A DNA stretch of 61,936 nucleotides, filler included, from Sluysia triapertura (Eukaryota): the NCBI GenBank assembly GCA_046118255.1. It is 5 parts of 5 records of this genome, joined end to end, with 100 filler letters (N's around TTAATTAATTAA, not from the genome) between each part and the next. Parts side by side here need not be neighbours in the genome. Positions count along the whole stretch, not along the records: positions 14,720 to 27,217 come from JBJNIA010103544.1; 4 more parts are not named here. One strand, written 5' to 3'. Made by a program: the position numbers and the translations under genes. Within the stretch, counting starts at the first letter, position 1, and each line of letters opens with the position of its first letter. Shown here one piece after another: positions 1,907 through 54,449 of this stretch. Under the pieces are notes generated by a model. That model saw only the letters and a list, made by a program, of their open reading frames with translations, had not been told where the DNA came from and did no database searches.

Positions 1907-2830
1907 ATCATTAGTTTTGAAGAATATCCTGGTTTCGCTATTGGATAGTCTATTAATACTTTATCTTCTATTTTAAAATTATGTTCATTTGCTTTTTGTC
2001 ATAATTATCTTTCAAGTTTCTTGCGTATAACGTATTTGTAAACCAGCGCTTTTCCATGCATCTTGTAAATTTTCTCTCAAAGTAGTAACACATTCTGGAG
2101 TTTCCATATATTTAGATGAAGGTGGTACCCAATCTAAGTCTACTGGCATGTTTGAATGTCTGTCGTACATGAGATAGAATGGTGTGAAATTAGTAGCAGG
2201 ATGTACTGAGATTCTGTACTCAAATAAACATGGTGATATATATAAGTCCCAATCTTTTTGTCTTTCGTTTACGTAGCATATTTACTACTAATCTTTCTAC
2301 TAATCCATCTGTCTGTGGATGGTATGGTGATGCATATATTTTTAAAATATTAAATATATTAGCAACGGATTTTATTACAAGGCTAGTAAATTAGTTCCCT
2401 GATCAGTTAATAATTTTCTTGGAGTTCCGTACCTGTATATTATTTTTTCTACTAATATTTGAGATACTGTTTCAGCTTTTTGATTAGGTATTGGGTGAGC
2501 TTCTGGCCATTTTGTTAAATAATCTGCGAATACTATTATATATTTATTTCCATTAATTGTTTCTGGCAATGGTCCCATTATATCCATTGCGGTGAATTCC
2601 ATTGGAGATAGTGGTATAGGCATTGGTCTTAATGGTAATTTTGTTTTTATCCCAGTATTCTTTCTTCTGCAACATATAGCAAAATTCTTACACCATTTTT
2701 TAATATCTTCTTCCATACTGTCCCAGTAATATTATTTTTAATTCTTGATAATGTTTTTCTTGTTGATAAGTGTCCATCGTGATATTGAATCAATAACGGT
2801 GTTATTACAGATTTCGGTACAATTGTTTTC
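1865..2830 (-). pseudogene. pol: Gypsy pol: integrase (zinc finger, catalytic core, C-terminal module)
   Basis: YHDGHL, WCKNFAIC, AMDIMGPLP, LLTDQG, YHPQTDGLVER, C-terminal VVHLNRCK. Confidence 0.95.
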
Positions 2831-3123
2831 CATTCGTTTTTTGAATCTCTAAAACGTAATATATCATCTGTTATTGATAACTTTTTAGCTTGATCTTCGT
2901 TCAACAGTCCTTTTGCTATAGCTTCAAATACATATGACATTTCTTCATCTTCTCTTTGATGTTTTATTATTTCTTTTGGTTCTTCCGCTTTTCCGAAATT
3001 GACATTATTTGAATAAAATTTATCTCTTTTTTCGTCATGATTTCTTAATTTTATATTCCCCTTTTCATCAGTATTTGTTAATCTTGACATACAATCAGCT
3101 CCATTGTTCATTGATCCTAGTTT

Positions 3124-3465
3124 TTATATTATTTGTAAATCGAATTCTACTAGTTTTGTGAACCGTCTATTTAATCTACTCACTTCGTCTTTTTGGTTGT
3201 ACAAGTGTGTTAATGACTTATGGTCAGTATATAAAAGCACTTTTTGTCCCAATAAATAGTGTCTGAATAACTTGCATGCATAGACAATTGCTAAACATTC
3301 TTTTTCAATTGTTGAATAATTCAATTCAGCTTTATTTATTCTCCTACTTACATATGCTATTACTCCTTCTAAATTTTCTTTATTTTTCTGTCTCAGAATT
3401 GCTCCTATTACAAAACTACTAGCATCTGTTGTTAGGATAAATGGTTTACTCATATCTGGGAACAT
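3124..3465 (-). pseudogene. pol: Gypsy pol: RNase H
   Basis: FILTTDASS...NYSTIEKECLAIV...LYTDHKSL, typical Ty3/Gypsy RNase H motifs. Confidence 0.95.
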
Positions 3466-4238
3466 TAGTTTTGATGCAGTTGTTAATTTTTTCTTTAATT
3501 CAATAAACGCTTTTGTTTGTTCTTCAGTTCATTTGAATATTGCATTCTTTTGTGTTAACATTCTTAAAGGTCTAGCTATTTTCGCAAAATCTTTTACAAA
3601 TCTTCTATAATAGTTGGCTAATCATAGAAAACCTTGAACTTTCTTTACATTATCTGGTGGTGGAAATTTAACAACTTTTTCCATATTTTTAGGATTTCGT
3701 TTTATACCTTTGTGTGAAACTATTATGACCTAAAAATTCAACTTGTTCTTATGCCCATACGCATTTAGTTGGTTTAACTTTCAATCTTGCGACTTCTAAT
3801 CTTTTTAATGTGTTATCAATATCTACTACTTGAGTATCAAAATCCTTAGAAAAAATTATTATATTATCAATATAAACCACAACATTCTTAAAACCGGACA
3901 GTACGAAATTCATACATCTGTGAAATGTTACCGATGCACTCGTTAATCCGAACGGCATTTTTTCACATTCGTACAATTCGTCTCCACATGAAAATGCTGT
4001 TTTATGTTTATCTTTTTCGGGTATTTCAATTTGTCACTAACCACTCTGCAAATCTATTGTTGTGAAATATTTAGCGTTTCCTAATTTATCTAGCATCTCA
4101 TCAATTCTTGGTAACGGCAATACATCTTTTCTTGTAATTTTATTCAATTCTCTAAAGTCAATACAAAATCTCATAGTTCCATATTTTTTCTTAACTAATA
4201 GCACCGGCCTTTTTCATCGTATCTATTTTATCTTTAAT
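3466..4238 (-). pseudogene. pol: Gypsy pol: reverse transcriptase
   Basis: [14 protein letters not shown]...[28 protein letters not shown] (YxDD decayed to YIDN), LANYYRRFVKDFAKIARPL. Confidence 0.95.
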
Positions 4239-4960
4239 TTATTGTTGGTTACTCAATGGAATTCTGTAAGGCTTCTTTCTCATTACTTTATCTTCTATTA
4301 ATGGGATTTCATGTTTTATTATGACGGAATCTCCAATATCATATTTGTTTCTTGTAATTGCCCATGGATATCTATGAATAGCTTTATATAATGTTTCTTT
4401 TTGTTGTTTAGTTAAATTATTATTCTTTATTTGTATTTCTTCGTAATCTTCTTCATCTTCAATATTTCTTTGTAGTTTTATGTTCTTATTTCTTGGTTTA
4501 TCATCTGATACCATTCTTATTTGTGTTTGTAATTTATAATTAACTATTTCTCCTAATTTGGTTCCTGCATATAACCATTTATTTTCATTTGTGTAATTTA
4601 TTATTCTTATTAATTCGTTAATTCTACATATTGAATCAGCAATACCTTTGTTTAATTTCTCTTGATTATTTTTCGAAGCTATAAACATTAGTGGGCTATT
4701 TCTTAAACTATTTGTTTTTCCTGGTATTATGCATTCTGTTCTTTTTAATAAACAACGTGGTTCTTCTAACATAATATCATCATTATCAATTGGTCTATCT
4801 GTATATGTATCCATTAATTTTGCTTTGCCAAAATCTAGTGAGACTCCTTTTAATTGTGATAATACATCCATACCTAATATCATGTCTTCTGGAGATTTTC
4901 TCTTTACCTTACATTTTATTTCAATTTTGTTTTGTCCAATTTCGCATAATATTTTTATTA
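4239..4960 (-). pseudogene. pol: Gypsy pol: C-terminal half of protease 1 and linker to RT
   Basis: EDMILGMDVLSQL retropepsin C-terminal motif; IKHEIPL...KKPYRIP marks the RT start. Confidence 0.85.
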
Positions 4961-6020
4961 ATGGGCATAATAGCTGTAAGCCAACACATTTAAATTTGTG
5001 CTATTTTAATTAATGCATAAAAATCACCTTCATAATATAATGATTGTAAAAATCTTAAATTTAATCCATTAAAAAATATCAAAAGTCACAAAATAGAGAA
5101 AAATATTACCATAAAATTACTAAATAATAAAGTTATAAAATCAGTGTTCATTATCTCTAATTTCAGTGTGATAATAAATGGCAAAAAATTAATAAAATAA
5201 CAATGGTTGACAATAATTTTTAATGAGAATAAAATTAATAAAATATATATTTGTAACATAATAATGAAATCAATATTTATAAATGAATTGAAATAATTTA
5301 AACCGGATAAAGTAATAAAAATATTTAAAATTATACCAACGTATAATATAGACGTATAATACAGAATGATGAAACACTTCTACAATTAGATAGATATCCA
5401 TAAATGTTTCACAAGATTGTATCAAAATAAAATTAAAAACAGGCAATAGGAACTCTATACGAACTGATTTAATTATAAAATAATAGCATATAAAAATATT
5501 CCTTAATAATACTTGAACGTATGTCATATAATTTATCCGTAAATGGAATAGAATAACTATCACATATCTACCAATAAAGTAGATAAATATAATAAAATAA
5601 ATGCAAGTAAATATAAAAATAATATGTCAATTTTGCGTAAATTGAAAAGAAACAATTATAACAAATTCAGTACATCATAATAACAATATTAAATTTTATA
5701 TTGTGGTTGTGTAAATGTTAAAGTAAGTATTTTTATGATTGTATGAAATTTGTTGAATATTGAGTTCCGAATTTTTATGTTATTTATTGATTTTTAATAA
5801 CTGCATTAGGTTGAGTTAAAGTTGTTTATGATAATTATATTTTGGCGTTGATTGCACTATAATTCTAAATGGTAATTTACCGTTATGTAAATGATACGAT
5901 TCATTTAGATAATCCATTAAGGAACTATAATATAATTAGAGCTCACCATGCATACATGGACTCATTTATCATGGACTCATTGCTAAAATGTCAAACATTC
6001 AATTATATCATTTATATACT

Positions 6021-6870
6021 TGTTGGGATTGCCCAGTTAATATATAGAAAATAGGTTAAAATGTAAGAAAATTCAAATATATATAAAGTATCTGAAATAC
6101 GATAATATAAACATAATTATATATTTCTAGAACAATAATAATGAACAGTAAAATGTTTATAATCATTTTAAAACCGAAGAATACCTTGGAGTTTCAAAGA
6201 CCTTTGTAGGGTATTGAGACCCTTACGAAGACTTAAGTAAGGTTTGGAAAGATGTTTTTAAGTAAGAAGATACCTTTGAACTTCCGAACCTTGGGATCAT
6301 TTGAGACCTTCAAGTAACTTTGTAAAAATGTTTAGAACCTTTAAAATCATAGTTAATAATATTAAAGATAAAATTAATACATTAATAATTAAAATAAAAA
6401 AGGAGAAAAAGGAATCAATGTGGTGAAGGTGAAAACATCTAGAGCCTCATGAGTACCTCATAAAGTATAACCATAATAAAACCTTTAAACTTAGAATAAA
6501 ACAAGTTAAAATAAATATATAATTAATTAAAATCTTATTTAACTTAATTAAGATAAATTACGTTTGTGTGAATAACTTTTGAATGAAGAATGCTATGTTC
6601 AAACTGTAACTGTGTATGTATGCGTTTTAAAGTGATCTTCCGATGAAGATAAGGTTGGATAGTTCATGCGAGGAAAGCCTCCGTATTGAGCAAAGTCGAA
6701 TATTAATTAATTTTTAATTAAAAATGCAGAAATTTTCATATTTAGAATGATGAAGAGATGATTTAGGTATGGAGTGACCTTAAATATTATCCATTAAAAA
6801 ATTGAGTATGACGAACTGAAAATTAATTAAACTGTAAACTAAAGGTAAATTCATAATTTTTATGTATGTC

Positions 6871-6912
<42 letters not shown>

Positions 6913-7576
6913 TGTTGTTGTTGTTGTTATTTTAATGTAAGAAGTGCTTCATGAAAAATAGATCGAGTAGAGTAAACGAAAAAAAATAAGAGTTGATTGT
7001 TAATCGAATTGTTATGTTTTGCTTTACTGGTCGTACCATGTAAATGTCAAAGTCGTTTTAGTCGGTTTAATCTTTAAAAGTAGTTTCGATGATATGTGTA
7101 AGAGTAATTCCTGATTGTGAGTTTGAGAATGATTGGACAATACAGAGATATAAAAGCGAATACTTAAAAAATTAACAACACAATCGATCATGGCGTAATG
7201 TAATGATCATATAATATTAAGTTGTTGTTTTTAATTTTTGGGTTGAATAAATATCATTATTAAGATAAGAAAATTGGTGATAAGTTGTACTTGATTTAGT
7301 GAATATTGAAATCATTTGAGGTTTAATTTATGTGAATTAAATTAATGTTGGATTATTCTTATTATTGATTTAAGGGCGTAACATTATTGTACTTGTTAGT
7401 TGAGTTTACAAAGATTTTAATATATAATTAGTATTTGCATTATTCTGTGAACAATGAAAGTTTACTGCAGTTAGAGAATAATCAATAAATAGTAACGATT
7501 AATGAAGATACATTGAAAATTTTGAGTTAATTTAATTATTAAGTTATTGTTAGTAATCTTATATAAAGACGCAACA
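6021..7576 (+). mobile_element. LTR-like family A, apparently full-length (about 1.55 kb)
   Basis: TGTTGGGATTG...GACGCAACA with TGTTG/CAACA inverted ends; flanks TACT/TAAT (possible 4-bp TSD with one mismatch); many diverged copies in the window. Confidence 0.7.
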
Positions 7577-9039: not shown

Positions 9040-9453
9040 CATTCCGACCACGAAATGGGGCAAAATTTCCCCAATTTTGAGGTTTTCCTCAAAATACGGG
9101 TCTTCAAAAATTAAGTAAAACATGTGGGAAAAATGACTTTTATGATAAAGAAATTACTGTAATTTGTATTAAAAACAAGATAAATCATTACATTTAAAAA
9201 ATGAACTTTCAAGTGGGAGAAATTAGTTGAAATTTTGAAAAATGAAATTAAAATTTTTTTAAACTTTGTTTAAATATTTGATTTATTATATCTATTAATT
9301 AATAAATCAAATCTATTTTATTAATAAATCTATTTTATTTTTCAAACTTTCAACTAATTTTCCCCACTTAAAAGTTCATTTTTAAAAAAAAGCATATTTT
9401 TATGAGGATTACTATTATGGTGACAAAATTTTCCCCAAAACGTGGTCGTACTG
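9040..9453. mobile_element. Tc1/pogo-type MITE, largely palindromic
   Basis: TA|CATTCCGACCACGAAATGGGG ... CCCCAAAACGTGGTCGTACTG|TA; additional internal inverted repeat about 9195-9245 versus 9340-9385. Confidence 0.85.
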
Positions 9454-10913: not shown

Positions 10914-11066
10914 CATCATTAGTGTTGACACAATGTATAACAATACTCATGAATGTGTCAACACTGATGATGGCCAGTCATCAGTACTAATAATTTTTAC
11001 ATGTCACCCAATCAGAGCTGATTTTGTCTAATGTTCTCTTTCGGGGCTCTGATTGGATGACCAATC
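10914..11066 (+). promoter_or_regulatory. Cargo-cassette upstream module: 19-bp hairpin plus paired CCAAT motifs
   Basis: Arms 10914-10932 and 10954-10972 (18/19 match); CCAATCAGAGC...GCTCTGATTGG; GATTGGATGACCAATC at 11051-11066. Confidence 0.55.
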
Positions 11067-11149
11067 AACCATGATTAAACAAATCCAATTTTATAATTTT
11101 TAATTAAAAAGTACAAAAGAGGAAAACAACACAAGAAGCAACGGTAACA

Positions 11150-12068
11150 AATTTTCAAAAAGATACTCAAAATTTACGAAACGATAGAATAAAAAACTTG
11201 GAGTATATACTATCGAAAACTCAAATCCGTTTTAAGTGAATTTTTTAAAGCCGATAATGATATATAATCAATCATTGATATATCCAATGATGTTAAACTA
11301 CACATTCACAACTTCCACCAAGAAATCGAATCTGATGAAGCAAATCATATGGGAGAATTAATAAGAATGATTAAAGCCATTGATGATCCTAACCAATTGT
11401 TATATCTTATTAATTTTACTTTAGATCCAGATTTTAGTTAAAGTTTTAATTCAACATTGTATTCTCTTATGATAATTAAAGATGAGTATGTTGTGATTCA
11501 TTCATATAAATCAACATGCGATATCGTCACTGAGTTAGTAACTCAACTAACAGAAAACGAGACTTTGAATTTTGATCCGAATAATCTGGTTGTTTATCAC
11601 ACCAAAATAAAGAATTTAAGCGATTCCAAAAGCTATGATGAAATAGTCGAATCAGCAGACGTAAGAGCTGAATTAACTATGAAATTAAAAGGAGTACAAG
11701 TCGAGATCGACATGCTGAATAAAGTTTTTAGAAATGCAACAAAACTACATATATTTCATATGCAAGCTACAGAAAGTTTAAATAACGCTGAAACTGTTTA
11801 TGTACTAATTAGCCCATCAACAATATACCAATTCATGTATGTTACTCGTAATTCAACTATGTCAAGGAGAATGACGCTCATTTATGAGAGACTATTAGGT
11901 CACGAAGAGGTATTCTTATATCTAACTAACCTTATATCACGAACCTTATACCCACGTGATCGTCAATCAACAGTGAAGTTTATAATTATTTCTAATGCTT
12001 TTAATAAACTAACAAATCTCAAAGGTAAGTGCTCAAATTCAACGAATGATGAAATTATTATGCTATAA
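11150..12068 (+). pseudogene. Intronless ORF of unknown family X, copy 1 (weakly MSV199-like)
   Basis: 203-aa ORF 11457-12068 extends upstream through stops; AATAAA at about 12135; colinear similarity to 42700-43800. Confidence 0.5.
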
Positions 12069-14619: not shown

Positions 14620-14719
14620 NNNNNNNNNNNNNNNNNNNNNNNNNNNNNNNNNNNNNNNNNNNNTTAATTAATTAANNNNNNNNNNNNNNNNNNNNNNNNN
14701 NNNNNNNNNNNNNNNNNNN
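14620..14719. other. Assembly spacer N44-TTAATTAATTAA-N44
   Basis: Exact 100-bp structure with a six-frame stop linker, seen four times. Confidence 0.97.
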
Positions 14720-15095
14720 GAAAGTGTATTTATTTTAGAAAGTGTATTTATTTTAGAAAGTGTATTTATTTTAGAAAGTGTATTTATTTTAGAAAGTGTA
14801 TTTATTTTAGAAAGAAGTATGATTTTGACCGAGTTCATATAAGAAATCCTTAATATTAAGCAATGCCAAATTTAATTAATTCTTAATTAAATTGTACTTA
14901 GAATTATACTTACTTTTTTTTATACTTAGAATGATGAAAATATAATAAATTGAGTATGAGATGATTGCTATGAATGAACTTAAAATGTTTGTAAAATGTC
15001 TGATAATTAGAACCTTAAACATTTTTATTAGAAAAATGGATGTGACAAATCGAAAATCATTTAAATTAAAAAAGTAATTTATTAATTAATTTAAT
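14720..15095 (+). mobile_element. Family A internal fragment starting with an 18-bp x5 tandem at the contig edge
   Basis: (GAAAGTGTATTTATTTTA)x5, then sequence matching about 6640-6860 and 37370-37660. Confidence 0.65.
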
Positions 15096-15587
15096 GGTGG
15101 AAAATTATTAATAAATTTTTGAAGTTGCGGTGGCCAACTGGTGGCCTGAAATTTAAAAACAATTATTTCAATCACATTTTCACACTCATTATCTTTCTAC
15201 ATTATACCTTTTCAGAACCCATCAAAACCTTTTCTATATTTTACATTCTTTTTAAATTCATTAAAACCATTTTTATACTTCAAAACATTTTAAATTCACA
15301 ATTTTTCAACATCCAAACTTTAGTTTCATTCAAAAACATCCAAGGTAAATTTAAAAATTCATTTTATGAATTTTAAAATTAATTTTTTAAGATTTATTTC
15401 GAAGAATTAAGACATTGAAAAGTAAAGATCGTTTCAAATTATTATTATTATTATTATCAAAATTATGTATCAAGTATATGAATTAAATTCATTCTAGTAC
15501 GTAATTTAAATTATCATATTATAACTATTATTATTATTACTTTTATTTTACTCTTATCATTATTATCAGTATTAACATACAACATTT

Positions 15588-15739
15588 ACGGACACTCATA
15601 CAACGATGACGGACACTCATTGAGATCATTTATTTTGACGTGCATAATTAACTTCACATAAAGCTAAATGGACACCCAATAAGATCTGTTATTTTATCTT
15701 TTTATTCTTATTTTATCTTTTTGATTGGATGTCCAATCA
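15588..15739 (+). promoter_or_regulatory. Cargo-cassette upstream module with paired CCAAT palindromes
   Basis: ACGGACACTCAT twice (15588, 15609), ATGGACACCCAAT (15668), GATTGGATGTCCAATC (15723). Confidence 0.55.
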
Positions 15740-15990
15740 GTTCACAAAAAAACAGAGTTTAAAAATAAAAATTTTAAAATAATATCTACCAGCATTATTG
15801 TAATGATCAATAGCATGTAATAAACAAAATTTTAGAATTAAAAATGGTGCTTAAAAAAGATATACAAAATTAAAATATTAGTATCTTTAAATTTTGTAAA
15901 AGTTCAATTTAAATCAATAGTTATACTAGTTTGTCAAAATTCGGATTCTTTAATTTATACATAGTAATTTAAGAAAAATAAAAGTAAAAG

Positions 15991-16623
15991 ATGAATGAAA
16001 CACTTCAAACGAAATACAATAGTGATATTATACAATCTAGCGTCTCCGAAAATCATAAATATCAGTGTGAAATTTCAGCGAATACCTCATCAGTACTCCA
16101 ATCATCTAATGTATCTAAGCCAATATATGATATTATGGAATCTCCAAGTATATCATCAAAATCCAAAACCTGTTGATCGTGAATCAGCGAAACGTTTAGC
16201 AAAACATTTGTATGATTGTGATGGATTCAGAATAACATATATCAAATCATTTATCCAAAAGGAATGAATTTAATCGGGTTGTTGGAGTTGAATTTTCAAA
16301 TTTACGACTTGACAAAGCACTACGGCAATTTCTGAGCAAATTAACACTAGTTGACAAAACGCAAGAACGAGAACGTATTATGCATCACTTTTCAAAACGT
16401 TATACGATTTGGTGAAGACGGTTGTCACAATTTAGTTTGTGCTCTGATTATCTTAAATACAAATTTACAAGGTCCAATTTATCCAAAATTATCATGCAGG
16501 AATTTTATAAAAGGTTTGAAAGTACTTAATGATGATGAAAGTTTTAAATCCGAAAACCTTCAAGAATTATTTGATTCAATCGAACAAGAACCTATTAAGT
16601 TACCTGTCAATGATGAATATTAA
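15991..16623 (+). pseudogene. Intronless, frameshifted Sec7 domain of EFA6/PSD type (Arf6 GEF)
   Basis: Across frames: SAKRLAKHLYDCDGF, LDKALRQFL...KTQERERIMHHFSKRY, DGCHNLVCALIILNTNLQG...LQELFDSIEQEPI, matching EFA6/PSD Sec7 motifs. Confidence 0.88.
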
Positions 16624-17829
16624 TACCAATAAATTGCATGTTTTCCCGATCGAATAATTTAGTTATCTCTTTTAGCAATCCTAGTTCCGGAGTCACAGAT
16701 GTTAATTCAATCCGCGAATGGCACTATTGTACAGAAGTTTTTTTAACGAAACTCGAGGTCGCAAAACATCATTCATTAATCACACCTTGATAATCTATCA
16801 GGTTGATTCAAGATATTTAACTACACATCAATGTGAACAATAAAATTTAGATCTTTCCACTTCTGATTTAGATTCAAATGTCTTGACATTCAGTAATAAT
16901 TCTACAAGGGCCCGAAGTTCCTCTAAATGCGTATCAAAAAGAGTAATTGATATTGCGAATTATGATTCCATGGAACCAAATGAAAGGTGTGTAATTGATG
17001 GGTAAACAAATTATGTTAATTCAAGTGAAATGATAGAACTTTTTGATGTAATAGATGATAGTTCACAGAAATTAAACGAAGTTAAACATTTAGCAACTAA
17101 CTATCAAACCAGAAACATGACATGTAACAAACGAAGATATTAATTCTGCAGCAAGAGTAACAGAGAAGGTTGACAATTTTTGGCTAGACTATTAATGAAG
17201 CCCAAACAATAATACAATAAAGTAATTTACTCTATTTATCCAGATTTTAACTAATTGTGATATTTTTTACTTCAGGATCACAACAACCAGTACATACAAA
17301 AAGGTGTACGCCTTTTATCCCCTGTATTAGTAAATTAAATCTTAGCATTTTAGTAAATAAATGTTTTCGCATGTTTTTTTAATTCTCTTCAAGTTTTCAA
17401 AATTACGAATATTTTATAAAATAAAATTGGAATTATCAAATAAAAGTATTAATATGATATTTGAGATAACATAAATTTAAATAATAGTAATCCTATGATC
17501 AATCTGAATAATCAATACCTTTAGAAGTTATATTCATGAGCTTTTTGTTATTCTAGAATCACTTTTTGGAAGATAGTTGATTTAATTCTGTTTTACATCA
17601 AGCCTAGTTTTCATTTCGTATATATTAATTAATATTTTGTTTAATTTTCTTATTTTATTTGAATTATTTTATTTGACAGTAGTTTTGTATATTAGATTGA
17701 TAATAGTAATTACATATAATTTTGAAAATTTGATTGGAATTATTTACTTTTATTGTATTTACGTTAAAATAGGTTTGACAGTAATGAGAAAATTTTTAAA
17801 TAATAAATAGATTCGTATTGTAAATAAAG

Positions 17830-18563
17830 AAAAATTCTTTGTGATAAATTTTATTAGATTGTTACTATATTTAGTAACATTTCAAGTTAAGTTAATTTTG
17901 CTATTAAGTTATTCTTATAAATCATTAAACAAAGACGTAACAATATTACGTATATATACATACATGAAGTTGGATGATCCAATTTCAAAAAGGGTACGTA
18001 CGGTAGATAAAAAGATTAAAATACAATAAAATAAAAAGCTAAAAATAAAAAGATAAAATATTAAAAGATAAATCAATAAATTAGAATTTATACTAAATTA
18101 AATTTAACTTATTTATTTATTCCGTTTTGTATATTTTATTTATAAAATACAAAAATGTGACAATGATATTAGTAAGACAAAATAATAAATCTGCCAGAGC
18201 GTTTAATCTAATACTCAAATATTTTAAGTCGATATTACTTTTCAATATACCGGGGACTTCAAAAATTTACAAAGTAATAGAAAATTTGCGTGTATTTTAT
18301 AATGTCAACTTATAAAGTTGAAACTGACCTTATAAATATATAAATTACCAATAGATTCGCTGCAAAAATGAATCAAATGATTTTTCAAAATAGCGATTTT
18401 CATTAAACTGATGCTAGTTTATATACCACTCATCAGCCAATGAAAATCGATGGAACATTCTAGAAGCTTTTCTTTTTTGGAAAATAATTCTTTTTTATGT
18501 GATTTTAAATATTTTTAAGTGTTATTATGATATTTTAAATTATTTTATAGAGTTGCGATGACA
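17830..18563 (-). mobile_element. LTR-like family B copy
   Basis: Minus-strand start TGTCATCGCAAC and core TTCCATCGATTTTCATTGGCTGATG...TATAAACTAGCATCAGTT, shared with 28128, 56543 and 59356. Confidence 0.65.
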
Positions 18564-19301
18564 ACCTAACAATTTGATTAGTTTTGTCAGGTAATAATCA
18601 TGATAACATTGTAAAATAATAATAACGACAAGATTAAAAGTTGAATTTAAATCGATAAAAAAATAGACTAATTATATTAAGAGAAAATTGTAAGATCTCT
18701 TATTGGACGATTGCGCATTACCATAGTTACGAATGCATACGCCACAAAGTTAAGATATTAAACGTTCAGAATTATTATTGATAAAATCCTATAGGTTGTA
18801 ATTCACTCACTATTTTGCGTAGGAGTACAATGATTCATATTTTGTTTAAATTAAAATATATATATTATTCAAATTTTACTTAGTTCAATATACACAATGA
18901 TATTTTTTTAAATGCCAAATCTATTAAATATCTTATGTTAATTAAACATGGAGAATTAGTCAGCATTTTACAATATCCATACAATTACAGTTTATTGCAC
19001 GAAATAATATCTATACGAAATTAGTAATAAAACATTGATTTAATTAAAAGTACACTTATTAATTTATATATTAATAATTTTACGATTCAAATTTAAAAAT
19101 ATTATGAATAATTACTACTTATTTTCTGTAGTAAATAAGCATAACGAAACTTGTTAAATTTTGACAATTTTGTATCGCGTTTATTGAAAACCAATAATTT
19201 TCAAATGTTGGCATTTTAATAATTATAAGATTTGTTTGTGTAGAATTTAATTTTCAATCAGTATTAATTTTGCAATTTTTAAATTAAATTCGTGAAAGTC
19301 T

Positions 19302-19490
19302 ATGATTAAATCAATTTGGATAATTTCAATTACTTTTTCATTATTATTATTGTTATTATTATCAAATCCTTTATTAGGATTAACAATCGAAGAAAAACAA
19401 TTATTACTGGATTTGCATAACTTTTACCGTAACAATTACGTATTGCATAATCATGATAGAGTTAAATTATCTGGTGATTTAACGGTTTTG
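19302..19490 (+). CDS. Exon 1 of a secreted CAP/SCP/TAPS (venom-allergen-like) protein
   Basis: Signal peptide, then LTIEEKQLLLDLHNFYR (CAP N-terminal HNxxR motif); phase-0 donor TTG|GTAAGA at 19490/19491. Downstream exons not found. Confidence 0.85.
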
Positions 19491-21671
19491 GTAAGATTTA
19501 TATATATTACATAGTAAAATAAGAATTTGATATAATATATTTAAATAAACTTATTTAATTTATTAAATTTAATATCATATGATCTATAAAAATGTGGCTT
19601 TTTTGGTATTATAAAATAATTGAAATTTATGTCCAACTAATGGTTCTACTCGAGAAAGGAATAATTTATCGAACTTATTTTTAATATGATAAAAAATTGA
19701 ACAACACTAAAAAACAATAGTTTTTGTAGATTTTGCACGAAAAAATATAAATAAAATTACGATTGTAAATACATAAATAATGAATAAAAATAAATAACGT
19801 TAATATAATGTAAAATGTGAGGTGAAATAAAGTAAATTTAAAGTTGCAAATCATATTACAGATGAACGTATATATTAAACAAATTCGCAGCAATTAGTGA
19901 ATCTTTTACAAAAGGACAGTTGAGAATATTAATGTTATTATCATTATTACTATTATCATTATTATTATTATCATTATCATTTTCAAAATAAAACTCAATT
20001 AATTTAAAATTATTTACAAATAAAATTAAAATAATTATCATTTAGATTGTAATGCTTTGTATCAATTTAAAATGAGATTTAATATAGTTAATATAAATTC
20101 AAAATTTAATAACAAATAGTAACTAATTTAAAATCAAAATGTAAAATCATAAAATCAAAGAGAAATCAGTTCAATAGGTAAGTTAAAATCATGTTAAATT
20201 GAGATTCAATAAAACTATTAAACAATTAAAAATGAGTAACATTATTCTCGATTAGAATTAATTTAAATTAAAGATTGGGCAGAATAGAGAAAGTAATGTT
20301 ATACTAAAATTAAAAGCATTATAATAGAGAAAAATTATATTAAAATACGAATAAATATAATTTATATGTAATTAAAATTTAATAGCATATTTTTGATAAA
20401 GAATGATATTTGTAATTTGCTATTATTATTATCTGTTATTAACTAGCAAAAATTTTACTGTATAAGACAAATTTTTATTGAAACCTACTGTTATTATTAT
20501 TACCATAATGAAATATTATGATTATTATTATTAGTGTTTTTTACTACAAGTTAAAATTAAATTACATTGCATATAAACGGTATAATATAAATAACAACAC
20601 ATAAAAGTATCAAACACACATAGTTGAAGAGAAGAATTGATTTTATAATATTTGGAATAAAAGGTTATTTATCGAAAGAAGACTTTATTGAATTTAAACC
20701 ATTTGATTATCGAACTATACATAACTAAAGGCATAGATTCGGAACAAATTTTTGTATATGTCAAATAACGCAGACGAAAAGTAAGTAACAAGTATTATAA
20801 TCTCTATCTGGAAATAAAATTCATTAAAAAAGTTTTAAATAATTTTAATTCATTTTAATCAATACATTTACATTTTACTGAATGTTTAAGTGAATCCAAT
20901 TTGTATAATATTTGTAATTTTAATATTGTTAATACTATCAAACTAATTGCTTGATTATTACAATCGTTGTAATTAAAGAATTATGATTCATTTTCTTGCG
21001 TGCTTAGTTAAATTTTAGCGAAATTTGAGGATAGTGTCCTAAAAGGAACAATGTTAACTGAATATGAGTTGTAACCCTATCGATAAGGAAATACGATAAT
21101 AACGTCTATTTTAAAATAAACCTACTTGGGTATCATTTAGTAAGTAACATAAGATTTCACTTCGAAATGAATAACTCATTGCAATTCCATTCCAATCTAT
21201 CGGAACGAGTATCATAAATAAGACAATAGAGAGTTCGTAAAATAAGTTAACTGTCAAGAGGCTTCAAGTATTGCTAACGAATAATATTTTTACGTAACTA
21301 AATATGTTAAAACTTATCATCGTAGAAGTGAGAATGTGTATATATTAATAAAGTTAAGATTTAAAACATTTCGTTAAGTTTGCATTGATAAGTTTCATCG
21401 TTTACATTTATCGTAAGTTCATATAAAATACATTACTATATATCGATACAAGAAAGCATATATCCAGATTCATTTTAAGTTTTACTAAGTTTGAATATTA
21501 ATTAAATTATTTTTAAATTTAACATTACTATTATTATTATTATCATTATTACAATTATCATCATAATTATTACAATCACTATTACCATCGTTATTATTAT
21601 CAATATTATTACTATTATCATTGTTTTTACTATTATTTTCATTATCATTATATTATTATTGTTTTTGTTCT

Positions 21672-22845
21672 TGTTGCGTCTTTAAAAGATCTGGATTATA
21701 ATTATTTAATTTAATTTACACTAAATTTAAATTCAGGGCTTAGTAAATCAAAAATATAATTCAAATATTTAATCAAATAAATATATATATCATAGGAAAG
21801 TAACTACTCTTACAGTTGAGAAATCCCACTAACTGATACTTAATATATAAAGTAAATAATAAAACTATAAATTGTCTAGGAAAATACAAATAAATATTAA
21901 ACAATCAGCAATCAACCAAAGATGACAGATTATTATTGTTAGCATACAAAATAATGAATTTAATTTGAATTTTCACAATTTAATTGATTTTTAGTTTTTC
22001 ACACCCAATTTTCTATGGAAAATGTTTAAGCTTTTTATTCTCAAACAAACCACTCTACAAACATTTCAAACTCACTTCTAGATTCTTCTCTTCCGTAGTA
22101 TTCATCTCATATTCAATTCATTGTACTTGCATCATTCCAAGTATAAAAAATTCAACGTTGCATAATTAAGAATTAATTAAAATTTGACTTTGCTTTCCTT
22201 GCATGAACTCGGTCAAACCATACTTTCATCGAAAGGTCCTTTCAAAACAAATACACGCACAATTTAACATAGCATTCCGCATTCAAAAGTTATTCAAAAA
22301 ATGTACTTTGTCTTTATTAAGTTGATTAATATTTTAATTAATTAATCTATTTATAGACTTAATCATATATTATGTTTAAAGGTTTTATTAAGGTTCTAAA
22401 GTTATTCAGTAGTTATAATGCATTCAGGAGGCTCTAGACGTTTTCACATTCACCTCTCTGATTCCATTTTCTACTTCTTTATGCTAATTATTACCGTGCT
22501 AGATTTATCCTTAATACCAATAACAATGATTTTATTTCTCAAATATTTTAAAGATTTTAAATACTTTATAAGATTACTCGAAGGTCTTAGATGTTTATCG
22601 ATGTTTCAAGAATGCTTAAAAGTTAATGAAGTCTCAGATGATTTCAAAGTTCACAAGTTCAAAAGTATCCTAATGCCATTAAAGGTTTTTCAAGTCCATC
22701 TCAAACCTTCATATAAGACATTGGAACTCAAAGGTATTTTCTAGCTGTTAACATCATTATAGATGTTCTCATTCTCATGATTCTCACTTTATAGTTCCAC
22801 GTATTTCTCACTCATCTTCTGATCCACAGTTGGACAATCCCAACA
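21672..22845 (-). mobile_element. LTR-like family A copy, internally deleted or variant
   Basis: Both termini present: TGTTGCGTCTTT at 21672 and TGGACAATCCCAACA ending at 22845; no TSD evident. Confidence 0.7.
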
Positions 22846-24544
22846 AATTATTGTTAAATTTCAAATAAAAACACAAAAGCAAATTTATGTAAAAAAACGA
22901 TAATGGTGGAACTGTGATGTCTTTTAAATAGCTTAAATTAACTGTACTAAATTTAAATTCAAAACTCAGAAAATCAAAATAAGATTTAAGTTAATTATAA
23001 ATTATCAAAATTAATATCAGCTAAATATCCCAAATAAAATGAAGCAATAAAAACCGTTTTTCTCTAATAATATAACTCGAATCTAATGCACGTCTTTCTG
23101 CCCTATGAAGATAGACGAAATTTAATTTTTGGTTTCCAGATAAAATGATTTAATTGTGAAATTAGTAACAATATCAATTGGTCTATATAGTAAACTTTAC
23201 TTGCCTTTATCCCATTAATTTATTATTTATAAACAAAACATATTCAATTCTTTTGACTTAACCAAATCGATACTCATTTGTCACACCAAAGTAAATTAAA
23301 ATTGACAAATTATTTCATATTCCTAATCTTCTCAATATGATTGATATAATTAACGAATCTTTTTTTAGCAAAATAAATGTATTCAAGATCATTCCTCACA
23401 AGGATTCATTCAAAATATATTTTCAGTCCATAAGATTTTTCTATGATGCGTTATTCATTTTTGACACTTAAAATTACTTAAAATAATAAATCTAATAATT
23501 ATAGTAGATGTAAATAGCGAAAGAAAACTTATTTTATCGATATATTGAATCGCCATTAAGTTTGATAAGCATATGTCAAATAAGAATTTAATCACTGAAT
23601 TTAATTTAATTAATTTTTATTTAATTAAGATTTTTAATAATAATGATAATATTATTATTATTATTCGTTAACTTAAGTCGAAGAATTCAGATACCTCTTA
23701 ATAAAATGTTAAAATTTTTCCAAAAACATCACTTTAATGTGAAGCAATTTTATAAAACATATTTTAATTAACAAATGTACTTTTATAAGTTTTATAACGT
23801 ATTTTAAGGTTTTAGAGCTTTTTTAATATGTTATCTAAAAATTTCATGCATAAACTACAATTATAATGTTAAAGTTGAGATTGTATGACGACCATGTTTA
23901 TATAAAGTTACTGATATTTGACTATAACCTCTGTGTGACATTGTGTTTGTATAAGTATATTTATATAGTGTTGATATTGTGTGGCATCGATTATACGAGA
24001 TAAATGAAGTGCAATATAACTGTTTGAGTAATGTTAAATTCCTAGGTCGATGGATTGACGATAATAGATGTTTGTGATTGAAATATGTATGGATATATAT
24101 TGTATTATGCGATGTAGATTCATGTTCGTAAGATTCAGTGTATGTTATTAATAAAACTGTAATTAATTATGTATCTTAAGATAAAGATACTCAAAGTAGG
24201 TGTGAAAGAACTAGAATTTATAACTGAAGTGTTTCGAAGTATTTTGATGATATGATCATGTTGAGAATGGTGGTTACAAAGAATCTGGAAGAAACTAGTG
24301 ATATGTTGATAAAATATCAAAAATTACTCATACAATTTTTATATCTACCTTTGACGGTATTGTATGAATTTGACAGCCTAAATTTAATGCCATTAAAATA
24401 ATGTTTATAAAAAGGTTTAATCATAAAAATTTTACTTTTATTGTGATTAAACATCTAAACAATTATGATACGATAAAATTTCATTTACAATTACTTTATT
24501 TAACATTACAAAGCGTCTTTTATCTTCAAATTTACGTGCGTGAA

Positions 24545-25300
24545 TTACGTTAACAAATAAAGATACAAATTAAAATATTTATAAAAACATAGATAAAAAT
24601 AAGAATGAGAATTGATATAGTCTTCGTATTCTAATTTCATCATTTCGAAATTTACATAGTTTGAGAAAAATTTGTGACGTTGATTATTTATTTCTTTAGT
24701 ATTTTTTCCGTTCATTTGATGTCCTGATTGATCCCTCTTGCTGATTTCATCAATGTAGGTAGAATCGACAAATTTACTAAAATGTTTCTCTGCGATATTT
24801 TTAGTACATTCGGTTTTATCTATAATCATTTCAAATTAGCGTGGTTGCCATTTCTTTCGCATCATATCATTATATAAAACGGAGGTTTCTAATTTACACT
24901 TCATATTATCTAAAAATTTTCTTTTAATATTCATACTAAGTGCTTGATTTTCTCTAAATTGGATTAATCAACGATAATAACATGACCAATATAGTGATTT
25001 TAAAACTAATAGCATTTAATGAAGGTAATCGCGATCTGAGATAGAGGCCAAGAAAATTATGTAGAACGTATTCACTATTAGCGGCGAATATTAGTAACTC
25101 ATTTAGATCTATTTGTGCCCAACGACTAAACTCAACAACACTGCGCTTATTAGGATGTATATTAAAATCATATCGAATTCAAGTAGTGTTTGTATAACAT
25201 TCTCATTTAGTTCATTAATAATTGCAATAAAAATATCTTCATGTTTATTAAAACTTTTCTTTTATACTTTTACTTTAATTAATGAGCCTTGCTTTGTTTA
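24545..25300 (-). pseudogene. Intronless coding remnant, possibly family X / MSV199-like
   Basis: RSVVEFSRWAQIDL, IKRKFLDNMK, QRHKFFSNYVNFEMMKLEYEDY; interrupted by stops; CCAAT motifs upstream at about 25340-25420. Confidence 0.35.
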
Positions 25301-26526
25301 GTTTTCTATTTTCTTTTTATTTGAGTTTATTTTTAGTTTTAGCCAATTATAGGCTTTATGTAAGTATTAATTTTTATTGATTAATTTATTTTTAGATAAC
25401 TATCATTATATTTTAACCAATTAGAAGTACATCATCATAGCTGAAAAAGATGTATTGTAATTGACTTGGCAGCCATTGTTATGTTTTATTTAGTGTATAA
25501 CTAAGACCTGGAGGCCATATTAGATTATTATTATTATTAAATAGTTATTATTATTATATTATCACTAAAATAGATTGGTTATACATGAATATCCTTTTAT
25601 ATGAGCTTTCAATAATTCTTTTCTAATTCATTAACGGATTTTACACATTTTTTCTCAATTTCTTTTTGAGTATTTTCAGCCTTAATTTAGAGTTAGGTTT
25701 CGAATCAGAATTTTTAGTTGTGATATCTTGAATGAGAGAGACGGGCACACATTTGAGCCAATAAGCGTGAGTATAACTAACACGGGTGGAAATTTAAATG
25801 CTTGTGTATTTTGTTTAATGTTTTGTGTAACTGTATGTGTGCCATTTTTCTTGAACAACTTTTATCCGATATTATCTTTATTGCAATTATTATTATTATT
25901 ATTGTTATTATCACTAATTATATTATTAACAATTATTATAAATTTTATAATTTTTAGTAATTTTATTTATTTCTATGATTTTTTTTCATTTTAAATTATT
26001 AATTCCATTAATAATTTTTATTATTAATTTAATTTTCATTTTTGAATTAATTTTTATTTTTAATTTAATTTTTGTTTCAGACCAGACACATGATTTCATT
26101 TGTAGGTCGCTTTGATTCAACAACATAATCCGAATAGGTTTTAACTAAATATTTGAATATATATATCCTTAATTTTAAGAACCCTAACAGAATATGAAAC
26201 TTTGCTAACTTTGAATTTGAAAAATAGTAAAACTATTACTTCAGGTACGTGTTCTGTTACATAAATTGTTTAAGAAATGTCCTAAATTTTTTTCTCTTGC
26301 ACAATAATACGAAAGCACTTTTCAAAAAAACGAGGAAAGCATTGATATAAATATAATGAAAATAAAATCTTAGCTCATCATGTGTAGAGCCATACCTTGG
26401 CATCGCCATAATTTTATGTTTATAGATTAAAGTATAATGATTCTTTAAATTAAAATTTTAATCAAAGTATTACAAATTTTTGCCCTCAAAAAATATTGCA
26501 AAAATACTAATATTATATTTCTTTAA

Positions 26527-26782
26527 CCGTTTGAGTGCGGGAGAATTTTCTTATGCAAATGCTAAAAGTCCAGGATGAAATACTTAGTATTTTGGCGGGG
26601 AAACAATGAAAATGGCTATAATTAACACTAATTGTTATGTAATTTTGATCAAAAAAATTTTTATTTTCACTTATTACAAAAATGTTTTGCTGCACAAATT
26701 TCATGAACTCCTTTTTTACCAACAGCAACATCTTCGCATTATCGATACAAAACAAGAAACGCGCTGCGCTGGACTCAAACAG
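26527..26782. mobile_element. piggyBac-type MITE
   Basis: TTAA|CCGTTTGAGTGCGG ... CTGGACTCAAACAG|TTAA (11/14 TIR match, TTAA TSD). Confidence 0.75.
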
Positions 26783-27151
26783 TTAAATAAACTGTTCATA
26801 AAATGCAAATTTAGATAAAGTTTTAAAATAATGTTTTTATTGATTTATTGTCATTATACAAATTTAATATCAATTTTCAAAACTTTTAGAATTTAGCAGA
26901 AAACTATGTAGTAATAAAACATTTAATTTTATAAAAGTACAGTTGTTTTCAATATTTTTAAATCATAAAATACACATATTGCTTTTTATACATCATCTAT
27001 AATTTCTAATGAAGTTTGAAAGTATATCTAAATTTTTCACTAGATTGAACTATTATTTACTTAATGATATAATTAAGCAACATTTTTGTGGTAGTGACTT
27101 AATTAATTTTAAATGTTTTATCCGTCACGGCTGAGTCTTTAAAATAATTAT

Positions 27152-27153
27152 AC

Positions 27154-27217
<64 letters not shown>
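27152..27217. repeat. (AAT)n microsatellite at contig end
   Basis: Perfect AAT run abutting the gap; similar runs at 6871, 29322, 53470, 54392 and 60830. Confidence 0.95.
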
Positions 27218-27317
27218 NNNNNNNNNNNNNNNNNNNNNNNNNNNNNNNNNNNNNNNNNNNNTTAATTAATTAANNNNNNNNNNNNNNNNNNNNNNNNNNN
27301 NNNNNNNNNNNNNNNNN
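27218..27317. other. Assembly spacer N44-TTAATTAATTAA-N44
   Basis: Same 100-bp structure. Confidence 0.97.
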
Positions 27318-28127: not shown

Positions 28128-28964
28128 TGTCACCGCAACCTTTAAAATTATGTAAAACATCATTAAAAAATTTTTAAATTCATTTTAAAAATATTTAAAG
28201 CTTCTAAATAACTAAAAAATATTATTTTCCAAAAAAAATAAAAATTCCAAAAATGAAAATAAGCTTCTAAAAATAGATTAAAAACTTCTAGAATGATCTA
28301 GAACATTCCATCGATTTCTATTGGCTGATGACTATGTATAAACTAGCATCAGTTCAATTTTCAATAATACTTTTCAATTCATTTTAATCACAAGTTATAA
28401 TTCGCCATTTTGATACAAAGAAAATTATTTAGTTTTACAATACCCATCGACGTGGTTTATTTGTCGGTGACGAACAATTTCCGGAATTTGTTTTAGATAT
28501 TTTGAATTAGTATTTCATAAGCTTTATTTTTATAAGGAAGTTTCAAACTAAAAAATTTGAAACATAAAATCCAGGTAAATTCAATTAAGGCTCTATCAAA
28601 ACCCCGATCTAATGAGGGGAACGTTTTTATAACAGTAAAATTAAAGATCCACAGGATTTTGATTATAAATTTATCGACATTATTATAACTGAGTTTCATA
28701 ATTCTTTTCTACTCCATTAAATAATTAATTTAATTGAGACATATTCTTTAGTTTACTTATATTAATTATATACTTGCATAGATTGATAATTAAATAATTA
28801 AAGAAACCCTCCAATTTAATTAATAGATTAAGTTCTTTAGCATTAGAATTAACTTGTGTTAGTTAAAGAGACGTCATCTTTATGGCATAAGACGTTTACT
28901 GTGACCGGACTCTACTCAGTTTTATTTTGTCGTGGGGTAATAAGAAAAACTGCAGCATTTTACA
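28128..28964 (+). mobile_element. LTR-like family B, apparently full-length (about 0.84 kb)
   Basis: TGTCACCGCAAC...TTTTACA, internal ATTGG and TATAAA; flanks AGAT/ATAT; right end uncertain by about 10 bp. Confidence 0.6.
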
Positions 28965-32749: not shown

Positions 32750-32764
32750 ATTCGTCAAAGCATG

Positions 32765-39065: not shown

Positions 39066-39165
39066 NNNNNNNNNNNNNNNNNNNNNNNNNNNNNNNNNNN
39101 NNNNNNNNNTTAATTAATTAANNNNNNNNNNNNNNNNNNNNNNNNNNNNNNNNNNNNNNNNNNNN
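39066..39165. other. Assembly spacer N44-TTAATTAATTAA-N44
   Basis: Same structure; separate 150-N gaps occur at 39393-39542 and 46344-46493. Confidence 0.97.
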
Positions 39166-42505: not shown

Positions 42506-42699
42506 TTAATTTTATATGATTTACAATTAAGTTGCTTGTAAGAGTCTCTCTTAATAATAAATAAAAATAACGATACTCTGTTCGTGTAACATAAATATTT
42601 AAAATTACTTTAAATCTATACTTGTTAAACTGACTAGAAGATGCAATATTGTTCGTGGTCTTAGTGTGAATTTTATTGGTTTGTAGATTATGGCTAAGT

Positions 42700-43800
42700 G
42701 CGTTATTTTGTACTGACATGAGCAAATCATTCAAACGTCCCAAGTGTTCATTACTGAATTGATTTTTAAGCCATGATAATTTGATTCTAAGATACTATGA
42801 AAATAACAGCAACGTACGCCAAATTTAAGACATGCCGGATTCGTATAGCTGAGATGGACACTGTGCCGAAATTTTATAGATATCAGAAATTACACTTGGA
42901 TTAGAAATAAGTGATTTAGATTGATTGATCTTGTGGTTGATCAGATTGGATATCATACTTTGTTTACTTTTGACTTCATTATAGTTAACCATATTCATTT
43001 GAGATCGTATATATATTACAATTAAACCTTCAAAAATAAATGATGGAAAACTAAGGTCCATATTTTTACTATTATAATTAGCAGTGAATTCACTTATGTT
43101 GGCTTTATTAAAATTTTGATATAAATTTACTTGATTGGTAATATTGACGATAAAATTAGGATCTCTTCGATTCAAGGAGAGTAAAATAACTTCTGAAGCA
43201 GTATTATTTCTTAATGTACTGATCTTGTTGACTAAACAAGTATAAGATATATCTGAAAGATATTGTATTGATCCTTTATACAAATTATCCAGATTTATTT
43301 TGTATAACATCAACAAACGAATGTTAATAATGCGTGGAATGCATAATTTGAACACGTTCTAGATCAGATGTATCGTATAAAAATATTATTGAGTTTTCAC
43401 CATAATTAAACTCTTCATGAAATGAATTAACTATCTTTTCGGAGTGTTGACAAAATTTGGAAAAGAAATTACCAAAGAATCTCTTACTATTATTGAAATC
43501 GTTCTTTGCTTTTATTAAAAGTCCATTGAGTACATGATTATTAATTAATTTTAAGACAATAATGAAATTATTAGTTTGTGATTCCTTTTCATCATCAAAA
43601 TATTTCGCTTTGATTCTGATGAAATCTCTTTCTCTTATAATATACATATTTCTTCCATTCACTGAAAACATATTATACTTATGAAACAAATGTGTAAAAA
43701 TTTTTTGGTATTCGTAAATTTTTAGTACTTTTTTTAAATCTGATTTTTATTAGATTCTATTTTTAGATTTTTACCTGTCTCGAAAAGTAATTTTTAATTC
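42700..43800 (-). pseudogene. Intronless ORF of unknown family X, copy 2 (frameshifted)
   Basis: ORFs 43324-43689 and 42825-43355 align in order with 11150-12068: VQIMHS/VVIHS, IQYLSDISY/IKNLSDSKSY, LISNPSVI/LISPSTI. Confidence 0.5.
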
Positions 43801-43876
43801 TAGCCAATAAAATTATGTTAAATTGTGCACAGTTTTTATTATTTTCTATTATTCGTAACAGAATAGAATCGACTGT

Positions 43877-44098
43877 GATTGGGCGTCCAATACTAGTAAT
43901 TAAAAATAAGATACAAAAATAGTAATTATTGGACGTCCAATCAAAGTAAAATAGAAGTTGACCAAAGTGATAGATTGTTGTGTTAGTAGTTGCGTTACTA
44001 GTTGCAAAATTTGATTAACGCGCTAAGCATCTGTCATCAGTCGACAGTTAACACGATATGCTGAGTTAATTTTAATTAAACTGTCGACTGGTGACAGA
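43877..44098 (-). promoter_or_regulatory. Cargo-cassette upstream module: 20-bp hairpin plus paired CCAAT palindromes
   Basis: Arms 44030-44049 and 44079-44098 (19/20 match); ATTGGACGTCCAATC at 43928 and GATTGGGCGTCCAAT at 43877. Confidence 0.55.
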
Positions 44099-45895
44099 CT
44101 ATTGAAATAAAATACAACAAGCAAATTAATGCCAGCAACAATAATGATAATAAAAATGGTTAAAATAATGATGATAAGTGTAATAAATTGAATAAATAAA
44201 ATAATAATAATACATAAACTTTATTCTTTGAAAATAAAATTCTTTTCCCTTACAAATAAATAAATAAAATTACATAAATATTAATTTCTTTGGATAAAAT
44301 TAATCTTCTTTTCATAGAACATATACAATTAATTTAAATAAAATTTTATTTGAATCCGAATGTTCAGAATGGTTTTAAAGTGTGAGTTTAATGTTTTGCA
44401 AAGATGTTAAAGAAATTACATATTGATTATAATGTTTTAAAGTGATTTTGAAATGTGAATTTAATGTTTTTCACTGATTTTAATGATGAAGTGTTGAAGG
44501 ATTGTGAACTTGAAATGTTTTGAATTAATTTTGAAATGTATATATGATAATTTAAGATGCTGAGTATGATTTTAATATTGTGAAATTGTGAATTTAAAGT
44601 GTTTTAAAGTATCGAAAATTTTAAAGAATTCTAAAGAAGTGAATTATGAAATATTATGAAGTGTGATTTATTTTATTCGTAATGTTTAATTAAAGTTTTA
44701 AGATTAATTAAGTTTTAAGTTTAATTAAAATTTAAAGTTTAAAAAATCAATCATCTGTATTTCACAACGTGTTTCCAACAAGACAATTTGCTTGACAATT
44801 TAATATTTTTTTGAAATTAAAGTTTTGTCATAAAATTTGTAGCATATAAAAAATCCGAATTATTAATTTTGTCACTTTTATTTATTTTTTATTACGTTTT
44901 GTAAGTAGTTTCATTGTAAAATGAACTTTTGAGATAATCTTAGTTTTAACTCTTACATTTTTAGTTTTATTTTGTGCAATAGTTTTTATAATTTTATATT
45001 TAATAAATTTCATTTTTACTGTTTTTTTTTCGATGTAGTATGTGATAATTTCGGTTTTTCTATCATAAGTAAAAATGTTCGACATTGTCCACAATTTGAA
45101 TGTTTCTTCATTCCTAAGCTTAACAGAACGTGAAAGCCCAACAGACCTCTCTTAGTTTATCTAAAGCTGAACCTATTTCAATAAATTTATTGTAAACAAT
45201 TCTTATTGCTTATAATTTTCGTTGTAATTTTCGTGACATTTTTATTAACGGTTTAACAACGATAACATGTTCAAAATATTCCGCTTAATGAAAACTTGCA
45301 TTAATTAAATAAAATAAAGCTTTAATAGGGATGTTATAATTTTGATGAGATATTTGAAAATTCGTTATGTCATATTGTATTATATAGTACTCGTTTTATA
45401 TCATATTATATTACATTATATATTATATTATATTACATTATATATTACATAAATATATAGTATAAAATATAATATATTTTCAAAATCTTACAAGTGAAGA
45501 GTTTTATAATGATACAGTGATAAATTTTATATTTATATAACCCAAGCCGTGACTATTTTAAGACAATTATTGTTGAGTTTTCAAAATTAAGTAATTTCGT
45601 GCACATGTAAAAAAATTCTGTTTCATCAAATAGTAACTAATTGTTATTTTTAAACTTGCCATTGAACAATATTCATTTGAAACATGTGGCAATCACTCAA
45701 TGTTTATTATATTTATATAAATCTTCAAACTTAGGTACATTGAAGATATTAAGTATTTATCATAACATAATGTACACTGATGTTTCATTATGTTCAATTT
45801 ATAGATTTTAGAACGGGTTCTCATAAAAAGAAAGTCAGTATTTTGATTTTAAACAAACTTATTTTAATAAATTTTAATATTGTTTTGCAAATCAG

Positions 45896-54440: not shown

Positions 54441-54449
54441 TTTTTTAAG

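Follow-up and report, generated by a model that had tools for sequence, protein, structure and literature searches.

Decayed, intronless EFA6-type Sec7 copy with many siblings behind a recurring CCAAT-palindrome leader in the genome of Sluysia triapertura

Amplification of host retrocopies by mobile elements is already known from bat Helitrons, LTR-mediated retroposition and the cargo of planarian Burro elements. The retrogenes amplified by bat Helitrons are, in the available sections of PMC4224331, processed copies beside a promoter-like region, present in tens of copies and mostly decayed, and the Sec7 locus described here resembles them in these respects; in contrast to them, it shows at its putative borders no 5' TC, no 3' hairpin-CTRR between A and T, no poly(A) and no clear TSD. 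With LTR-mediated retroposition, as presented in the accessible part of PMC5131818, it shares the element-carried and element-transcribed type of internal mRNA segment that lacks poly(A) and 3' end, and with the planarian Burro Gypsy elements (PMC6431247, in part) the occurrence of host-like domains on flatworm elements. It differs from both in that no flanking LTR pair or gag/pol is found on the Sec7 scaffold, and no Sec7 is among the Burro cargo named in the available text of PMC6431247 (BIR, BCL2, MATH, ankyrin and others). Helentrons and HINE/DINE-1 elements, as far as the accessible sections of PMC4067079 describe them, are similar in T-runs close to the two putative ends, a short left-end palindrome, microsatellite and degenerate repeats in the interior, and occasional decayed gene fragments, whereas neither a matching right subterminal inverted repeat nor a clear 3' stem-loop is present here.

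With respect to the cargo itself, the closest described relatives are flatworm EFA6 proteins (Schistosoma mansoni XP_018653328, Clonorchis GAA52022, Cichlidogyrus KAL3318908), whose Sec7 domains are 43-48% identical to the copy described here, which has the same EFA6-specific N-terminal and TQERER motifs and a tree position among flatworms. In contrast to these proteins, the copy is broken, intronless and present in many copies, carries a Lys at the glutamic finger, and has neither an intact PH domain nor an intact C-terminus. A eukaryote-wide survey, which states its own search bias, reports in its available sections no EFA6 without a PH domain (PMC6727740), and a literature search at the level of listed titles returned none on element-borne Sec7 or EFA6.

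The window, that is the whole stretch of DNA analysed (61,936 nucleotides; assembly GCA_046118255.1), has a base composition of 76-77% A+T and consists of five scaffolds of ~12 kb joined by artificial N44-TTAATTAATTAA-N44 linkers with stops in all six frames (14620-14719, 27218-27317, 39066-39165 and 50375-50474); the Sec7 locus is situated on the scaffold at 14720-27217 (Table 1). The reading we favour, with a probability of roughly 0.55, is that a processed EFA6 fragment was amplified as cargo of an unclassified non-autonomous mobile unit and that the copy in the window died afterwards. In a flatworm-like animal, an EFA6/PSD mRNA would have been reverse-transcribed after splicing, and its 5' portion, from upstream of Sec7 into the split PH domain, would have been placed behind a reusable G-poor and CCAAT leader, whose adjacency to EFA6 is observed and whose role as a promoter is putative. 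The resulting unit of ~2.4 kb would then have been copied many times, presumably by transposition, the siblings themselves being observed; and the window copy, which seems to lie within a high-copy repeat, has since decayed neutrally by frameshifts, stops and the exchange of Glu to Lys.

Table 1. Features of the Sec7 locus and of the two other loci behind the leader (positions in the window)
Feature	Position	Strand	Basis or remark
Second locus, other scaffold: palindrome (11008-11066), then intronless ORF	11008..12065	+	score 117.9
Left flank, fragment of very high-copy dispersed repeat of ~1.1-1.7 kb	14720..15080	+	summed depth >20,000
Putative mobile unit, borders weakly supported	15109..17549	+	contig joint 15108/17550
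G-poor leader tract, homologous to 44666-44388 (-)	15150..15410	+	alignment score
Paired CCAAT palindromes, first degenerate, in inverted repeat of ~65 bp	15667..15738	+	254 nt before ATG
ATG and 61-codon low-complexity N-terminal stretch	15991..16176	+	premature stop after first frameshift (~16148)
EFA6/PSD-type Sec7 remains, intronless, with deletions	16148..16614	+	Pfam, frames, identity
Lys codon (AAA) at glutamic-finger position	16356..16358	+	alignment with ARNO
Probable remnant of first PH strand (weak)	16720..16775	+	frameshift-tolerant profile alignment
Low-complexity frame with stops, common to siblings	16800..17140	+	7-13 contigs at 16855-17003
Candidate 54-nt GT-AG intron, branch-point-like motif	17222..17275	+	inspection only
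Third locus, on another scaffold: G-poor leader followed by two palindromes (43941-43878) and broken ORF from 43658	42528..44666	-	z -6.9

Judged by its sequence, the Sec7 copy belongs to the EFA6/PSD type, as the first-pass annotation had proposed. Two pieces without stops give matches to Pfam PF01369 (E 2.5e-10 and 4.9e-09), and an unindexed protein search with the C-terminal 73 aa of the domain yielded 108 matches, the best named of which are EFA6/PSD proteins of Schistosoma, Clonorchis, Paragonimus and molluscs. Computed on a read-through translation with X placed at the breaks, identity is 46-48% with trematode EFA6 and 35% with a cytohesin. In a tree of 73 rows (81 of 117 matches being full-length; duplicates and the cytohesin left out), the Sec7 remains are found on a long branch within flatworm EFA6, with a support of 0.93 for the grouping with Macrostomum and neodermatans and of 0.90 for that with neodermatans; this placement comes from the tree without the cytohesin, since in an earlier tree that included it as outgroup the remains adjoined the cytohesin. 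No triclad-labelled EFA6 was present among 30 proteins examined by name, a word-index protein search with the C-terminal piece gave no match (16 candidates), and no relatives of the piece were found in viral contigs.

Sibling copies were detected by aligning the contigs of one public sequencing run to the window at 80% likeness. At position 16354, 24 contigs carry a letter different from that of the window, making up 963 of a depth of 985, and the single-copy contigs of the Sec7 scaffold have a depth of 8.5-19.5. Among the sites listed, 13-14 contigs differ at 16430, 16475 and 16956, 6-7 at 16020, 16093, 16421, 16775-16855, 17001 and 17003 (where the stop of the window is no stop in 7 contigs), and 3 at 16751; at position 15192 in the leader, 28 contigs differ. 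Of the 16 coding-region sites listed, 15 were tested with one sibling letter at a time, and 16409, situated in the deletion zone, was left out. The sibling letters restore several residues conserved in EFA6 (the G preceding the finger, the A and T of DACHT and, past the LNT motif, S and Q), and as stray alignments would not yield conserved residues, the siblings stand nearer to the parent, and it is the window copy that has decayed. Two of the 15 differences are synonymous, among listed sites for which the manner of choice is not stated. On average, the bins of the leader and of the 3' part reach a depth of 286-346, which falls inside the range of the other bins (30-356), and depth is no measure of copy number here. 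The per-site rows alone are persuasive for many copies, with at least a dozen sibling loci as a fair floor.

The module of paired CCAAT palindromes noticed earlier upstream of the Sec7 remains recurs at two other loci of the window. ATTGG-N4-CCAAT is found four times (at 11052, 15724, 43878 and 43928) versus 0.02 expected, and in 0 of 100 shuffles. At all three loci the palindrome is part of an inverted repeat of ~65 bp (z -2.2 at the Sec7 locus, -3.2 at the second and -6.9 at the third), and on all three scaffolds the module is located 220-285 nt 5' of the ATG, in the same orientation, in front of an intronless and partly broken ORF. Alignment of the module between the Sec7 locus and that at 11349 scores 117.9 (shuffle maximum 62.6), the best non-self match of 446 tiles, and between the loci at 11349 and 43658 it scores 93 (shuffle maximum 78); with a score of 69 (shuffle maximum 81), the alignment between the Sec7 locus and that at 43658 is not significant. 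These two are, however, linked by the G-poor tract (102.8 versus a 95th percentile of 51), and G-poor 250-nt tiles of this kind occur at only these two places in the window. The paired module is promoter-like in appearance and might bind NF-Y. A search of metagenome contigs for its pattern gave 0 matches, and Rfam gave none in the window. No second leader copy was found downstream in 72 scaffold tiles, the best scores of 58 and 73 being within background, and a candidate second copy at ~21050-21210 (-) was rejected since its score of 73 is below that of a chance tile (81). Also rejected were a hammerhead ribozyme, as the CTGATGA motifs are situated in simple hairpins without the GAAA core (by eye), and a protein encoded leftward across the G-poor tract, for which tblastx similarity was only stop-ridden. 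A candidate 47-nt GT-AG intron is visible by inspection within the G-poor leader (15345-15391, +). The TGATTGG..CCAATCA palindromes resemble what we take to be features of Cryptons. The available part of PMC3212892 lends no support to this likeness.

The ORFs behind the two other copies of the leader are different. The one at 11349-12065 (+) comprises ~240 codons with one internal stop, and the one at 43658-42528 (-) is interrupted by a LINE-like RT tail, joined at ~42520 (by eye). Word-index protein searches gave no match for the ORF at 11442 (84 candidates) or that at 43659 (43 candidates), nothing usable for either was found in Pfam, PHROGs and ESM Atlas, and the single-sequence fold of the former has a pLDDT of 40, with no match by Foldseek or in viral contigs. 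Because the window is composed of five joined scaffolds, the three leader loci are unlinked, and one leader in front of different intronless, broken ORFs on unlinked scaffolds would suit a non-autonomous carrier whose cargo can be exchanged. The proposal of a host domain recruited as element cargo is supported in part, by the many siblings and the shared upstream module, and is not supported with respect to functional recruitment, the copy being frameshifted and having a Lys finger. A candidate GT-AG intron is located just 5' of the third-locus ATG, and a decayed Gypsy-type pol with protease, RT, RNase H and integrase (by eye) is found at 1334-5000 (-) on the same scaffold as the locus at 11349.

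The borders of the unit were sought in its flanks. The repeat fragment on the left matches four other copies in the window up to 15067-15077 and is cut off at ~15070-15110, and in one contig, with a short side of 25 nt, position 15108 is joined to 17550. On the right, an indel at 17467 is present in 6 contigs, the first contig of single-copy depth begins at 17416, and colinear matches to the right part of the repeat at 17672-18027 in three copies are borderline (48-69 versus shuffle maxima of 45-61). Since the repeat stops on the left and seems to resume on the right, an insertion of ~2.4 kb inside the high-copy repeat is weakly suggested. Against a mobile unit stands that its borders hang on this one contig and on borderline alignments, that no element ends and no 3' trailer common to the three leader loci were found, and that it contains a candidate intron. 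The joint shows neither TG..CA nor CTRR, the left border has no TG, and the regions 15060-15800 and 17000-18450 have no 11-mer (with at least 3 G/C) in common, direct or inverted. TTATT is present at both putative borders, a motif that is common in DNA of 77% AT, and the T5 runs at 15116-15120 and 17542-17546 together with the palindrome at 15123-15139 (by eye) give no more than a hint of an end like that of Helentrons. As the tests of terminal structure fail, the unit is not filed under Helitron, LTR or Burro elements. The dispersed repeat itself is non-coding, with copies of 65-80% identity at 6020-7184, 14720-15080, 21929-22845, 31481-33188, 33563-33991, 36971-37954 and 47540-47783 and a summed depth of up to 670,000 versus ~12 for single copy; a second, short family of very high copy number is found at 18382-18568, 28231-28358, 55550-55676 and 56589-56736.

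These observations bear directly on the alternative of a retrocopy or retrogene behind a common promoter-type repeat that was multiplied by tandem or segmental duplication, as a host gene family undergoing birth and death without any mobile unit. Many copies without recognisable element termini and without a 3' end common to the three loci would suit such a family, and multiple CCAAT boxes 220-285 nt 5' of an ATG resemble ordinary promoters. However, at the left border a high-copy repeat is interrupted, its right part seems to continue past 17550-17670, and the single-copy depth from 17416 onwards implies that the repeated unit is short, so that we consider this explanation unlikely.

The amplified cargo would have passed through RNA if its introns were lost by splicing. 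The absence of introns noted in the first pass was borne out for the Sec7 part, which is contiguous at both the K-N and the E-D junction; the E-D junction adjoins a 20-nt deletion, and the K-N junction is clean. In animal EFA6 loci from metagenomes, which are redundant and some of which may be transcripts, the D-x-x-HT motif is present in 42 of 46, and at the E-D junction 31 of these 42 show a YAG acceptor, 7 are contiguous and 4 show neither; the K-N junction is bounded by an intron in 9 of 14 loci and contiguous in 5 (by eye). A cestode gene model is broken at both junctions. Because two introns common in animal EFA6 are absent here, an RNA intermediate appears likely, depending on the introns of the host EFA6 gene; against it stand the 7 of 42 animal loci without the E-D intron. 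These and the contiguous loci at K-N would equally agree with capture at the DNA level, of the Helitron or Pack type, of a host EFA6 gene already without Sec7 introns, as would the candidate intron inside the unit and the lack of poly(A). As the cestode model and most of the sampled animal loci keep breaks at both junctions, capture without an RNA intermediate seems rather improbable.

How far the processed copy extended can be judged from its 3' part. The first-pass annotation had recognised no PH domain after Sec7, and an intact one was indeed not found there by frameshift-tolerant profile alignment, although a weak remnant of its first strand is discernible. The alignment always lands at 16715-16775, 58 codons past the end of Sec7; elsewhere, two molluscs have a spacing of 68-70 aa between Sec7 and PH, and schistosomes one of ~210. 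The score of this strand was matched by 18 of 500, 46 of 300 and 21 of 300 shuffles with broader or other profiles, and by 3 of 500 with a profile of seven flatworm PH sequences, which was picked after two broader profiles had come out weak and for which the site is the fourth-best in the window. The latter half of PH was not detected (114 of 200 and 36 of 40 shuffles score as well). In flatworms, a long insert of low complexity divides the PH domain, and the stop-containing low-complexity frame that follows may be what remains of such an insert. Based on the first-strand trace, the copy probably, if on weak support, extended into PH instead of representing Sec7 cleanly excised, contrary to the Sec7-only capture proposed initially. 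Further downstream, tblastn with 123 homologues gave no match at E<1 to the C-terminal coiled-coil region in 16600-17600, and there is no A-run of at least 8 in 16601-18400. A single ordinary processed pseudogene made by a LINE would explain intron loss and heavy decay, and is very improbable: as many as 24 sibling contigs at one site contradict it unless they stem from other organisms in the run, and it leaves the missing poly(A), the missing 3' end (second half of PH and C-terminus) and the upstream module common to two other loci unaccounted for. On this point the earlier judgement, that the copy is no lone processed pseudogene, stands.

The EFA6 copy at this locus is a pseudogene and not a working domain. 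The interval 15991-16623, previously taken as a reading frame, runs from ATG to TAA in one frame with 7 internal stops, the first at 16174, and the Sec7 sequence is split over three frames (16148-16235, 16239-16403 and 16414-16614). Small deletions, as had been noted, are present: read from frames and gaps they measure ~2, 2, 18, 20 and 3 nt, those of ~2, 2 and 20 nt changing the frame and the others removing six residues and one residue. Assembly error was rejected as their origin, since deletions of 2-20 nt are not homopolymer slips. The catalytic glutamate had been assigned to TQERER; this was a misplacement, because in the alignment of the window (LTLVDKTQERER) with ARNO (FRLPGEAQKIDR) the glutamic-finger position is occupied by the Lys of DKTQERER, and the E residues of TQERER are not catalytic. 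Glu is present at the finger in 92 of the 93 homologues that bear the motif (among 128 proteins). Lys at this position is also seen in two PDB chains among the matches, which we presume to be engineered inactive mutants. According to the available text of PMC6724607, charge reversal at the glutamic finger inactivates Sec7, and EFA6 mutants of this residue serve as dominant negatives, Glu to Lys being the substitution used in the laboratory (PMC4621509, accessible part). A functional Sec7-only regulator of Arf6 encoded at this locus, for which an ATG behind a promoter-like module and recognisable Sec7 motifs could be cited, is hardly credible in view of the stop at 16174, the three frameshifts and the Lys finger.

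If amplification as cargo is correct, the siblings deserve attention beyond the decayed window copy. A trafficking GEF as cargo and the presence of the leader on 3 of 5 random scaffolds of ~12 kb suggest that a gene-capturing carrier of unclassified type is abundant in a flatworm-like genome, and the paired palindrome provides a simple handle for a genome-wide count of such cargo. More speculative, and in our view doubtful, is an undescribed cassette-like family of flatworm elements in which a fixed leader of G-poor tract and paired CCAAT palindromes would serve stem or germ cells as a promoter bound by NF-Y and the cargo would vary, with intact EFA6 members expressing a Sec7 domain with disrupted PH; should the exchange of Glu to Lys be family-wide, these members would represent natural dominant-negative decoys of Arf6.

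Other sequences of the window include an inverted repeat at 9193-9387 with arms of ~95 bp and a 7-nt spacer, which is MITE- or foldback-like, and a CENP-B-like HTH fragment at 48956-49264 (+; Pfam E 0.059), possibly a remnant of a pogo/Tigger element. In addition, an exon with kinase homology is located at 54444-54600 (+; Pfam PK_Tyr_Ser-Thr, E 3.7e-07), probably of the receptor guanylyl cyclase type.
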